Notes: generated by a model not told the origin, from the sequence alone. DNA of 64,000 nucleotides from an uncultured Chloroflexia bacterium (GCA_963841825.1 CAWJEL010000021.1:7260-71259), one strand, 5' to 3'; counted from the first letter of the stretch, positions 17,059 through 62,069 are shown. Program-made: numbers and translations.

Positions 17059-18421
17059 ATGACAAAGCCGAACGTTCACGCAGTTCACCGCGACTGGGAT
17101 CGCGATTTTCCGGTCATCGTCCGCACGGAAGGCATCTACCTCTACGACGAGCACGGCCGGCGCTATATCGACGGCTCGGGCGGATCTTCCGTTGTGACCA
17201 GCCTCGGCCACGGCGTCGCGGAAATTCCGCAGGCCATGTACGATCAGGCTCAGAAGTTCTCCTTCTATCCGGCCCACGCGTTCACTAACCAGCCCTTCCT
17301 CGACCTGAGCGACCTGATCGTAAGCCTGGCGCCGGGTGAACTGCGGGATAACAGCCGCGTGTGGATCACCTGCACCGGCACCGACGCCACCGATGACGCG
17401 GTGCGCCTGGCGCGGCAGTACTGGGTGGAAAGCGGCAACCCTTCGAAGTACCAGGTGATCAGCCGGTGGCAGGCGTTCCACGGCAACAACGTGGCGGTGG
17501 CCGGCTTCTCCGGGCTGACCGCGCGGCGCAAGATCTTCCAGCCGATGTACGTCGACTCGCCGCACATCCCGCCCGCGTTCTGCTACCGCTGCGCCTACGA
17601 ACAGACCTACCCGGCGTGCAACCTCCTCTGTGCCCGCGCGTTGGAGACGGCGATCCTCCAGCAGGGACCGGAAAACGTCGCCGCGTTCATCGCGGAGCCG
17701 GTGGTCGGGGCGGCGCTGGGCTGCGTGCCCTGCGCCCGACGGCTACTTCCAGAAGATCCGCGAGATCTGCGACCGCTACGACGTGCTCTTCATCGCCGAC
17801 GAGGTGATGACGGGCTGGGGCCGCACCGGCAAGATGTGGGGCATCGACCACTGGGACGTCACGCCGGACATCATCGCCACGGCCAAGGGCATGACCGCCG
17901 GCTACACGCCGCTCTCCGCGATCCTCGCGCGGGACGCCATCTGGCAGGCGCTCGAACGAAACCATTCCGCGTTCAAGGCCGGCCACACGCTGAACGCCAA
18001 CGCCGTGTCGTGCGCTGGGGCCATCGCCGTGATCAACTACTCGTTGGCCCACGACCTGGCGGGCAACGCCGCAGCGCGCGGCCAGCAGGCATTGGCCGGG
18101 CTGGCTGACCTGATGGCGAAGCACCCGATCATCGGCGACGTGCGCGGCCGGGGGTTGATGTTCGGCTTTGAGCTGGTGGCTGACCGCGCCACGCGAGTCC
18201 CATTCCCGCCGGCGCGTAAGGTGAGCAGCATGATCGAAGCCGCCGCACTTCGGCACGGCCTGGTGACCTATCCCTGCACAGGGACCATCGCGGGCGGTCC
18301 CGGCGACATGCTGCTGCTGGCGCCTCCCCTGGTGATCACCGAACAAGAGATGGCCGAAGTACTGAACATCCTCGATCTGGCGGTCGGCGAGGTCGAGGAT
18401 GCGCTCGAGATTGCAGCATGA
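17059..18421 (+). pseudogene. Class-III (omega) aminotransferase, frameshifted as sequenced near 17731
   Basis: ORF 17059-18108 is homologous up to ...FIAEPVVGAALGCVP. The frame of ORF 17630-18421 continues APDGYFQKIREICDRYDVLFIADEVMTGWGRTGKMW...ATAKGMTAGY (PLP-Lys region). One extra base at about 17731 separates them. Confidence 0.85.
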
Positions 18422-19290
18422 AGCTGAGTTGTTTGCCCGTTTCCTTCTTCACTGAGATCATCACCGGACGCATGTCGGTCGCAGACTGGGCGCGCATGGG
18501 CGCGGAACTGGGTCTGGACGCGATCGACCTGAGCATCCTCTTCGTGCCCGATCGCTCCCCCGCCGCGGTAGCGGCGCTGCGCCGGGAGATCGAGGCCCAG
18601 GGCATCCGCGTCGCCATGATCACCAGCTACCCCGACTTCACCCACCCGGACGCGCACCAGCGTGAACGGGAGCTGGCGCTGGAACAGGAGGTCATGGCTG
18701 TGGCCGCGAGCCTGGGCGCCGACCTGGTACGCGTGACCGCGGGGCAGGCGCATCCCGAGACCGGCCGCGCCGACGGCGTCGCGTGGGCTGCTGAGGGCTT
18801 GAGCCGGCTCGTCGCAAACACGCACGGCCTCGGTGTGACGCCGGTCTACGAGAACCATGCCAAGCCGGGCGCCTGGACCCACACCGACTTCTCCCAGCCG
18901 CCGGAAATCTTCCTGGAAATCGTGCGGCGAACCGCTGACGCTGGCTTGGGGGTCAACTTCGACGCCGGCAACGCGGCGACCTTTGCCGCTGACCCGTTGG
19001 CGTTGCTCGACGAAGTCATCGGGCGCGTGGTCAGCGTCCATGCGTCCGACTCGGCCGTGCGCGGTGAGCTGCGGCATGTCCTGCTGGGCACCGGGATCAC
19101 GCCATATCCCGCGCTGTTCGCGCGCCTGGCGCAGTTCGGTTGGGACGGCTGGATCTGCATGGAAGAAGCGTCCTTCCAGGGGCGAGCCGGGGTCGAGGCC
19201 GCGGCCAGCTTCATCCGGCGGACATGGCAGGAGGCCCAACGTACGGTCAGCGCCGACAGCAGGCCGGTCGCGAACGCAGCGGGTCGCTAA
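18418..19290 (+). CDS. Sugar phosphate isomerase/epimerase (xylose isomerase-like TIM barrel)
   Basis: 290-aa ORF with ATGA overlap to the aminotransferase. AELGLDAIDL, VYENHAKPGAW and GVNFDAGNA are typical of the AP_endonuc_2 fold. Confidence 0.8.
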   Translation: MKLSCLPVSFFTEIITGRMSVADWARMGAELGLDAIDLSILFVPDRSPAAVAALRREIEAQGIRVAMITSYPDFTHPDAHQRERELALEQEVMAVAASLGADLVRVTAGQAHPETGRADGVAWAAEGLSRLVANTHGLGVTPVYENHAKPGAWTHTDFSQPPEIFLEIVRRTADAGLGVNFDAGNAATFAADPLALLDEVIGRVVSVHASDSAVRGELRHVLLGTGITPYPALFARLAQFGWDGWICMEEASFQGRAGVEAAASFIRRTWQEAQRTVSADSRPVANAAGR

Positions 19291-19439
19291 GCCTGAATAT
19301 CCAGGGCAGAATCCAGAGCGCCGCGAGCGTATTCTTGCAGAGAGACCGACGAGGACTTGTCAAACCGCTCTGCCTGGTAACTACGAAATAAGGTCAGAAA
19401 CTTCGCAACTCCCAAACCCCAACATATGATCTGCCATAA

Positions 19440-19474
19440 GCGCCGGCCCGACCTCCACCGGGCCGGCGCTTTTT
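19440..19474 (+). terminator. Rho-independent terminator
   Basis: GCGCCGGCCCG-ACCTCCAC-CGGGCCGGCGC (11-bp GC stem) followed by TTTTT, 150 nt after the isomerase stop. Confidence 0.8.
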
Positions 19475-59492: not shown

Positions 59493-60904
59493 TACCGAAT
59501 TAACGTCTCTCCGCGTGTCAACAGCTCCAGATGATCATCGGGCGGCGGGGCGTGTGCCAACAGATCGACCGTGCGCGCCGGAGCAGATCGCCGGCTTTGG
59601 GGCTGCCTTGCGCCTGCCAGGCCTCCAGGCTCAGGCGCGGGAATATCGGGCTGCGGTAGTCAGCCTCGCGAAAGTGTCGCAGCGTCATTTTGGCCGTCAG
59701 GAAATTGCCCCCCGGCCCGACCTGATCGATCTCGGCCAGCCCCACGACGGCCGGGTCCAGGGTGAAGCCATCAGCGAAGCGCCGCGCCTGGCGGATGACC
59801 TGATCGGAGTAGACCGCGGCGGCCGGTGAAAATACCAGCGAGTCGAAGTTGCCGCCGACGAACGGCGCCAGCCCAACGGTCCCGATGCATGCAGTCAGGT
59901 GGTTCAGCCAGAAACCATCGGCGGCCAGCAGATCCGCGCCCCAACCGCCGCCGCTGCCCGAAGTGCCGCAGTGCGGCACGCCGTAATGCGCCATCATCTC
60001 CCCGCAGGCCAGGTTGATCAGCATCGTCTCCGGCCCGTAGTAACTCCCCATCGTCCGCATGTCAAAGCTCGCCGGCAGGCAGCCGAGGATCACCGGCGCG
60101 CCCTCGCGGATGAGTTGCGCCAGAACCAGGCCAGCCAACAGCTCGGCGTTCAGCACCGCCAGCGTGCCGGCCGGGGTGATGGGCGTCGTGGCGCCCGCCA
60201 TGCCGTAATTCGAGTAGATGATCGGCAGGCCGCGGTTGATGGCGGCGAACATCTTGTCGCTCGTCTCGGCGTTGATCACCAGCGGCGTCACGGGGTTGAA
60301 GTAGGGGATGATAAACGGCCGCGCGCCGAGATCGCCGCACAGAGCTTCCACAAGGTCCAGGACTTGGCCGAACGACTCCGCTTCCGGCACGAGAAGGACC
60401 AGAGGTTTAGTCGTGTTGGCGATCATCTCCAGGGTCGCGATCAGATTTGTTTGCGCCATCGGGACGTCGTGCAGGACGCCGAGGGTGGAGATGACGTCGA
60501 AGCTCGGCAGCGCGTCCCCCAGCCGTGTGCAGCGCGCCATGTGGTCTCGCGTGAACGGCGTCACGGCGTCGGTCTCAGGCTCCTGAAAGTACAGGTTGGT
60601 CACGCCGATGCCGAAGCGGGCGCCATCCTGCCCGGCCGCTGTCCAGCGTGAAGGCGAGCGCGCCCCGGCGATCATAGATCGTCATGCTGGAAGGCGCGAC
60701 ACTGAGCGCCCAGGCAACGGTCTCCCGTGGGATGCGCACTCGGTCATTTTCTGCTGTGCGACCGATGGCCCGCTCAAACACCGCCCGCGCCCGCAGCGAA
60801 TCGACGCGCACGCCGGTGGTCGCCAGGATCTCCAGCGAGTCCGTGTGCACCTGCTGGATCTGCTCAGCCGACAAGAGCGTCAAGCGTGGCTTTGCCCGGG
60901 TCAT
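59477..60904 (-). pseudogene. MttB-superfamily protein, paralog 3; two frame changes (about 60633 and 59575)
   Basis: ATG 60904 with GGAGG upstream (MTRAKPRLTLLSAEQIQQVHTDSLEIL...). ...TLDSGR, then QDGARFGIGVTNLYFQEPETD... (ORF 59518-60675). After ...GDLLRR the alternative frame reads TVDLLAHAPPPDDHLELLTRGETLIRYLLGG-stop. Confidence 0.8.
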
Positions 60905-61051
60905 GGCCGCCTCCTGTGCGCCGCCGCAGTCGGGAAGAAAGTCGTGGTGGGTTGGAGTCTGTTGGGCCTGCGCCCGTTTCATTATATAATACTCCCGCAC
61001 CGACGCCGAACGAACGGCCCGGCATCCTCCAAGGATGGTTCCACCGCACGC

Positions 61052-62069
61052 ATGCAAGCCGCCAGCTCCGTCAGCCCCGTAAGCATCATCATGAAGGTCT
61101 GGAATGCCCTGGCGCATGTCCGGCTCTGCCTGAAGACGCTTCTGCACAACACCGATGGCCCGTTCGAGCTGATCGTCATCGACAACGGTTCGCAACCGGA
61201 GGTGGTGGAATTTCTGCGCGGGGTGGCTGACGGCGATGCACGGGTCCGCTTGATCTTAAATCCGACCAATATCGGCCCGAGCCACGCGAACCGCCAGGGA
61301 GTCGAGCTGGCGCGGCACGGTCTGATCTGCCTGATCGACAGCGACGTACTTGTGCCAAACGGCTGGCTGGGGACGGTTGGTCGCCGAGTTCGAGCGGCGC
61401 CCCGGCGTCAAACTGCTCGCCCCGCTGAACTATCATCAGACGCTCAGCCATCCCTTCGGACCGGAGAACAGCGCGGCCGCTTGGTTCAGGACGCGGAAAG
61501 AATACGAACGAGCATCGCCGCTGCGCCAGTTCTACGCCTATTCCGGCGGCCTGAGCATCGATGAATTCGACGAGCTCGATGTGCAGCACCCACACAGGCG
61601 AGCTGGCGGCGTACACGCGTGCCCGCCTGACTTCATCGGGACCTGCTGCGCGCTGCTCGACGCCGACTTCGTCGCGACCGCGGGCGGCATCGCCGATCCA
61701 CGCTTCGCCGGGTACGGCAGCGAGGACGTCGATCTGTGCTGGCGGATCGGCGAGCACGGCGGCCAGGTGGCGCGCACCGCGGCGGTCTACGTCCACCACT
61801 TCCACAACTCCAGCCTGATCGACAACGAGGTGGACGGCGAAGCTGCGCTGCAAACGGCCAATCAGATCCTGTACGCCAAGTGGGGACCGGTGCTGATCGC
61901 ACTGGCGCAGGCGGAGATGCAGCGCGGCGGTTCGCTGCGGGACTACCTGAGCGCGCATTTCATCTTCCAGCCGTTGGCACGCCACACGTCGTTGATCGCA
62001 GACCTGCGCGCGGCCACGGGCCGCGGCGATATCCCAGACCAGGTGATCTGGCAACCGAACGGCCTCTGA
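61052..62069 (+). pseudogene. Family 2 glycosyltransferase; frame change near 61372
   Basis: VSIIMKVWNALAHVRLCLKTLLHNTDGPFELIVIDNGSQPEV...LIDSDVLVPNGWLG, then the frame of ORF 61350-62069 gives LVAEFERRPGVKLLAP...GYGSEDVDLCWRI (GT2 DxD/ED motifs). Confidence 0.8.

Follow-up and report, generated by a model that had tools for sequence, protein, structure and literature searches.

Here we describe the reading-frame breaks in a 64,000-nucleotide (nt) stretch of DNA from an uncultured Chloroflexia bacterium (GCA_963841825.1 CAWJEL010000021.1:7260-71259; hereafter, the window), which is part of contig C21 of a draft genome (4.83 Mb in 38 contigs, GC content ~63%, estimated completeness 78%) and which carries, among other genes, a locus for an extracellular contractile injection system (eCIS). 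The breaks exist, measure 1–2 nt, occur at a similar density throughout the genome, hit essential single-copy genes, and are accompanied by no other sign of decay. We consider it very probable that they are consensus errors of the assembly, present genome-wide. Mostly single spurious inserted bases and less often missing bases, such errors would be spread through the entire draft at about one every 3–5 kb, with local clusters. The assembly is a contiguous metagenome-assembled genome (MAG), probably built from long reads, and the errors would have entered when it was sequenced, when its consensus was called or when it was polished. The nearest named relatives of the window genes are themselves Anaerolineae/Chloroflexota MAGs.

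An earlier reading of the sequence (the original prediction) had placed about 20 frame breaks in the window. We located frame switches with a tracker based on a codon log-odds table, trained on 1,290 long open reading frames (ORFs) of the same genome rich in third-position GC, followed by Viterbi segmentation into seven states (non-coding plus the six reading frames), in which stops were forbidden within a coding state and homology was not used. A Viterbi switch fell within a few nt of all 20 predicted sites (Table 1). Homology, evaluated with Pfam profiles, tblastn searches with the proteins of relatives, and global DNA alignment to a syntenic locus, confirmed 18 of the 20, and for nine of these the alignment to that locus, which is intact, resolved the break; support was weaker for the break in the tape-measure-like gene and the C-terminal break in an MttB paralog. 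At most sites, the abandoned frame stays open for another 36–369 nt before its first stop, a run-on that is the signature of a frameshift and unlike an ordinary gene boundary. The pieces between breaks are open, and no nonsense codon occurs at any break.

Across the genome, the tracker returned 1,560 same-strand switch candidates, or 0.32 per kb, with 0.33 per kb on the contig of the window and a per-contig range of 0.14–0.97 per kb. The 43.6 kb flagged in the original prediction holds 14 candidates, compared to a genome mean of 13.1 ± 6.5 for the same length, corresponding to the 67th percentile. Tracker precision was estimated from 10 randomly drawn candidates on other contigs, not from a clean genome: five were split genes (TauE, NuoF-like, DnaE, an aldo-keto reductase and a class I/II aminotransferase), each with one Pfam family or known domain architecture spread over two frames, three were ordinary gene boundaries, and two were uninformative. 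The shift is +1 in 1,099 candidates (70%) and in the other direction in 461, compared to 476 and 548, respectively, at clean boundaries. Together, this asymmetry and the random sample indicate that the true rate lies below the raw count, but still amounts to many hundreds of breaks.

Essential genes are affected as well. The gene for the RNA polymerase β subunit, rpoB, is found only on contig C34 (102983-107027), where its pieces are distributed over three reading frames, and a search of the genome detected no stops inside these pieces. In five of the six relatives searched, rpoB is one ORF of 1280–1379 amino acids (aa); in the sixth, a genome of 20 contigs and 65% completeness, it is itself split. 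Alignment to the gene of a same-genus genome (91% nt identity) revealed no deletions but seven 1-nt insertions, confined to the first 2.5 kb and flanked by conserved sequence; the 6 kb that follow, which hold the remainder of rpoB and the whole of rpoC, are without breaks. Likewise, dnaE is split, and one break divides a class-I aminoacyl-tRNA synthetase gene; rpoC and gyrA are intact. Because seven frameshifts in its only rpoB would be impossible for a cell, the assembly must hold consensus errors like those of the window, and equally patchy ones. The preference of the original prediction for assembly or sequencing indels, which it had based on hits in housekeeping-type as well as accessory genes, is thus supported by the comparable density elsewhere in the genome and by the split rpoB and dnaE. 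The same-genus genome, in 180 contigs, is 97% complete, compared to 78% for the present genome in 38 contigs.

Within the window, the eCIS locus allowed comparison at the level of single bases. It is a co-directional cluster encoding a sheath, a tube, a T4-baseplate-like protein, a tape-measure-like protein, a Pvc16_N protein, an AAA+ ATPase, two eCIS_core-domain proteins, a CIS tube protein, a spike OB domain, a DUF4280 protein, gp25, baseplate J, a 1006-aa wedge protein, a gpI-like protein and a DUF6519 protein. The sheath, gp19-like tube, Pvc16_N protein, AAA+ ATPase, gp25, J, gpI-like protein, spike and eCIS_core proteins are shared with eCIS of the Afp/PVC type; the host here differs, being an uncultured Anaerolineae-like Chloroflexota, and we found nothing unusual about the locus itself. 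The same locus in GCA_016719785.1, in the same gene order and at 82–86% nt identity, was identified by searching with the sheath sequence read through its break, the junction residue being set to X. There, the sheath (776 aa, 88% identical), the tape-measure-like protein (249 aa), the ATPase (677 aa), the small protein that follows it (92 aa), gp25 (118 aa) and baseplate J (805 aa) are each encoded by a single gene. Besides 19 in-gene indels that are multiples of three, the alignment contains exactly nine on the window side that are not: seven are extra bases in the window (1 nt each, 2 nt in one case) and two are missing single bases. Each lies within ~20 nt of one predicted site, and most within ~5 nt. 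The comparison with orthologous loci proposed in the original prediction thereby resolved nine eCIS breaks against intact genes, and for the three breaks in the ATPase and the one in the small protein, frame switches and DNA alignment agree with what had been predicted.

Additional evidence is available for individual eCIS genes. Residues 468 and 470 of a relative's sheath flank the junction at 21861/21866, and full-length sheath homologues, all of 770–780 aa, cover the read-through completely, compared to 741 aa for the product called here. The break had been predicted to fall in an AAAA run; by DNA alignment it lies just 3' of it. Positions 2–42 and 37–95 of the Pfam profile GPW_gp25 match in two frames, as do residues 42–473 and 486–880 of a distant relative's 880-aa baseplate J, and a distant relative's 813-aa gpI-like protein splits at residue 570. 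In the tape-measure-like gene, N- and C-terminal motifs read in different frames, with weak matches (E = 0.002 and 3e-5), and the indel is the only one in that gene that is not a multiple of three relative to GCA_016719785.1. Further related loci, found with the 1006-aa wedge protein, share 33–61% aa identity with the window; too distant for base-level work, they were nevertheless adequate for the gpI-like protein, gp25 and baseplate J. No other copy of this population was found, either by an exact-protein look-up of the wedge protein or by two pattern scans of metagenomes that spanned the breaks in the sheath and in rpoB.

Mismatches to GCA_016719785.1 by codon position are similar up- and downstream of each break and are dominated by the third position (e.g., 0.10/0.06/0.22 for positions 1/2/3 before and 0.06/0.03/0.22 after, in the ATPase), and this comparison gave no sign of relaxed constraint downstream of the breaks. 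The unchanged pattern, together with the absence of stops in the pieces, shows that the eCIS locus has been under purifying selection throughout; the breaks are either artefacts or extremely recent, and the injection-system genes are most likely intact in the organism.

We then considered the sequence context of the indels, for which the original prediction had named GC-rich dinucleotides or short homopolymers. The former received some support, with GC-rich words (CGCG, GCGCG) enriched 1.5–2-fold at junctions; the latter did not, as runs of at least four occur in 14.9% of junction windows compared to 17.1% of the background. Of the 16 events resolved to the base in rpoB and the eCIS locus, none lengthens a run of three or more, and the breaks do not fit a nanopore-type homopolymer subtype. 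The bias towards insertion, by contrast with the clean boundaries, is pronounced, including all seven events in rpoB and seven of the nine in the eCIS locus in addition to the genome-wide candidates, and two close insertions can mimic one shift of the opposite direction.

Several observations weigh against attributing the breaks to assembly errors throughout. The tracker yields false positives and, because three of the eight informative random candidates were gene boundaries, the true rate is nearer 0.15–0.25 per kb, and the flagged region may be ~1.5–2 times richer than the average. An insertion-biased, non-homopolymer spectrum is unusual and is not the classic nanopore signature of homopolymer deletions. 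The case for artefacts is also indirect at each single site, and a minority of real mutations may be present among the errors. A mixture of this kind, in which errors account for most breaks while a few reflect genuine recent mutations, or strain variants that entered the consensus, appears unlikely to us, yet has identifiable candidates: the two single-nt losses, the compensated pair in an efflux adaptor, and two genes in a low-GC island. The two losses oppose the insertion bias of the nine eCIS events, the island sites are without homology resolution, and a pseudogene content of a few per cent is normal for bacterial genomes. On the other hand, these sites are not set apart from the remainder. 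A shift in the direction opposite to the main one is also seen in ~30% of candidates across the genome, and insertions lying close together in pairs, as in rpoB, give the same signal.

The original prediction had further proposed that, if the breaks are real, the injection system is a decaying locus. Inactivating mutations in the eCIS locus, and perhaps in its accessory neighbours, could explain why nine breaks fall within 26 kb of one functional module, three of them in the ATPase; the locus is accessory, and no close orthologue of the neighbouring aminotransferase was found in 12 relatives. We nevertheless regard true decay as very improbable, and this part of the prediction was not upheld: breaks are as dense in the remainder of the genome and the locus is struck no more heavily than the sequence around it, lesions of the same kind are found in the essential rpoB, dnaE and aminoacyl-tRNA synthetase genes and not only in dispensable ones, the mixed lesion spectrum expected of decay is absent (no nonsense codons and no larger indels outside multiples of three, with only 1–2-nt events breaking the frame), every other in-gene indel relative to the intact locus preserves the frame, and third-position-dominated divergence persists downstream of every break. 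Mycobacterium leprae and recent host-restricted symbionts have undergone mass pseudogenisation while keeping essential genes such as rpoB intact, and in genomes of this type frameshifts occur alongside nonsense codons, deletions and substitution patterns that indicate relaxed constraint. The present genome resembles them in its many frameshifted genes, but here rpoB is hit seven times, nonsense codons are lacking and the codon-position pattern is unchanged. The strong +1 bias would also be compatible with real breaks whose decoding relies on programmed +1 frameshifting, on quadruplet decoding or on slippage of the transcript, an explanation to which we give almost no credence; equally hard to credit are real, insertion-biased +1 breaks tolerated genome-wide, including in rpoB, through +1 or quadruplet decoding or correction at the transcript level. 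A search for a motif shared near the +1 sites found none (the best k-mers were enriched 1.5–2.6-fold and accounted for no more than roughly one site in three), the bases inserted in rpoB and in eCIS genes vary in identity and codon position, orthologues are uninterrupted at the same positions, and insertions occur in close pairs. Programmed +1 sites, such as that of prfB, are single, motif-dependent and conserved in orthologues; the breaks described here share the +1 downstream frame, but number in the hundreds, lack a motif and are absent from orthologues.

Consensus errors in the assembly, our preferred explanation, have precedents. Like known long-read assembly errors, the breaks are small indels that split conserved genes genome-wide, at uneven density, in a contiguous assembly with depressed completeness, and they differ in being mainly insertions without homopolymer enrichment. 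Gene-splitting indels in long-read (meta)genome assemblies are well documented, as is their effect on completeness, and are addressed by proovframe (bioRxiv 10.1101/2021.08.23.457338) and Kastor (PMC12007338). In one study, frameshift correction raised the completeness of two long-read MAGs from ~85% to ~94–95%, with a larger effect in low-coverage contigs (PMC8103633). Nanopore consensus errors, by contrast, are described as homopolymer-derived (PMC9262707). For the present genome, gene calls, pseudogene counts, completeness values and inferences of decay are unreliable until re-polishing or frameshift-aware correction. The injection-system locus should be treated as probably intact, and the breaks themselves provide no new biology.

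The same caution extends to at least one related contiguous MAG of low completeness. In a same-family genome, rpoB is split into open frames of 531 and 856 aa (contig C12:155788-159667 of that assembly); this 20-contig, 65%-complete genome appears to be another contiguous MAG affected by frame errors. Among the aminoacyl-tRNA synthetases, the ileS model TIGR00392 gave no match above the cut-off anywhere in the present genome, and the best region (C19:135220-137555) is weak and itself split; ileS may be missing from the assembly or be of a divergent type.

As predicted, the first 17.7 kb of the window are free of breaks, with no frame switch that has a run-on and with near-full-length Pfam domains in single frames. 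We rejected one extra candidate at 10556-10747, beside an M24 peptidase gene, as the peptidase domain is complete in one frame. The clumpy distribution noted in the original prediction is real, but it is not specific to the window: candidate counts per 17.7 kb have a variance of 14.6 and a mean of 5.3 genome-wide, ~2% of 17.7-kb windows are candidate-free, and 17 break-free gaps exceed 17.7 kb. At least five candidates reappear in the 7 kb of the contig that precede the window. The clean stretch is unusual, not exceptional, and clumping is a property of the whole genome. Candidate density rises somewhat with GC content, and local differences in coverage or polishing are the probable cause of the clumping.

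Table 1 Frame breaks and related features of the window (positions counted from its first nucleotide)
Feature	Coordinates	Strand	Viterbi switch	Evidence and remarks
Stretch without detectable frame breaks	1-17700			Tracker and Pfam
Class-III aminotransferase, break	17725-17737	+	17735	Downstream frame +1
eCIS locus	19684-45972	+		Pfam; synteny with GCA_016719785.1
Sheath, C-terminal break	21859-21866	+	21860	One extra nt relative to orthologue; tblastn, DNA alignment
Tape-measure-like protein, break	23420-23510	+	23446	Lacks one nt; position approximate, stretch divergent
AAA+ ATPase, break 1	26185-26202	+	26200	One extra nt; tblastn, DNA alignment
AAA+ ATPase, break 2	27065-27075	+	27065	One extra nt; tblastn, DNA alignment
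AAA+ ATPase, break 3, in last ~20 codons	27230-27240	+	27237	One extra nt; three-frame reading, DNA alignment
Small conserved protein after ATPase, break	27360-27370	+	27367	Lacks one nt; three-frame reading, DNA alignment
gp25 baseplate wedge, break	35953-35970	+	35963	One extra nt; Pfam, tblastn, DNA alignment
Baseplate J, break	37333-37392	+	37390	One extra nt; tblastn, DNA alignment
gpI-like protein, break	42965-42975	+	42969	Two extra nt; homology, DNA alignment
Efflux adaptor (HlyD-type), two compensating breaks	50335-50431	-	50425, 50343	~30 codons out of frame, ORF open
SH3 and PD40-repeat protein, three breaks (~51737, 51383, 51283)	51283-51738	-	51738, 51383, 51283	Pfam and Viterbi
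Low-GC island gene, possible break	56238-56242	+	56240	Viterbi only
Second island gene, possible break	57003-57007	+	57004	Viterbi only
MttB paralog 3, probable second break, C-terminal tail	59563-59580	-	Frame ends near 59578	Tail motif, judged by eye only
MttB paralog 3, break	60615-60636	-	60636	Two-frame Pfam and paralog match
Family-2 glycosyltransferase, break	61372-61378	+	61375	Downstream frame +1; 186-nt run-on

Outside the eCIS locus, Pfam matches divide between frames at several sites. In the aminotransferase, positions 11–207 of Aminotran_3 end at ~17731 in one frame and positions 207–402 begin at ~17729 in the next; for this gene, no relative was closer than 68% nt identity, too distant for base-level comparison. 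The efflux adaptor gives a Biotin_lipoyl_2 match in an alternative frame, and it is only in that other frame, at ~50360-50431, that the lipoyl motif canonical for membrane-fusion proteins can be read. An out-of-frame motif within an open ORF is consistent with two compensating breaks, as had been predicted for this gene. The matches of the SH3/PD40-repeat protein to SH3_3 and two PD40 repeats lie on three different frames, one PD40 match being cut at position 26 of 38, with out-of-frame run-ons of 63–72 nt. The Glycos_transf_2 match of the glycosyltransferase ends at position 99 of 168, at 61378.

Three MttB-family paralogs are present in the window (12142-13674, 15247-16956 and 59518-60931), two intact and the third broken twice, the second of these breaks being probable. 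Positions 22–106 and 114–462 of Pfam MTTB match paralog 3 in two frames, as do residues 41–138 and 141–498 of paralog 1, and the tail motif that paralogs 1 and 2 have in common is found, near 59570 in paralog 3, in another frame.

The segment at 54700-59400 is low in GC (54–59% compared to ~64%), contains orphan genes and adjoins a Trypsin_2 peptidase gene; it is probably acquired DNA. The two breaks predicted in this island, at 56238 and 57003, are possible on codon statistics, and homology did not confirm them: neither the pieces nor the read-throughs had a Pfam match, and no homologue of the genes was found among 400 Chloroflexota genomes. At 56238, the old frame stays open for another 18 nt. 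This site may instead be a legitimate gene boundary with a long (59-nt) overlap, in which case a second gene could begin at an ATG at 56203.

Three features of the eCIS locus concern differences between the window and its syntenic relative. GCA_016719785.1 has three 1-nt differences of its own (at 17989, 18636 and 18678, counted within its locus) around the wedge/gpI boundary, corresponding to window positions ~41526-42215, where it carries a fused 1191-aa "wedge" call. Because the window frames agree with two other loci there, these are probably errors in the relative. At 33362-33375, a 14-nt tandem duplication absent from the relative lies at the junction of the CIS_tube gene and the next gene, both of which are open. 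Finally, two large eCIS_core (PF13699) proteins follow the ATPase (27447-30773 and 30801-32663), both intact. The relative has only one eCIS_core protein (622 aa), together with a PG_binding_1 protein, and the 1108-aa eCIS_core protein of the window is therefore the product of a variable gene, possibly of payload type.

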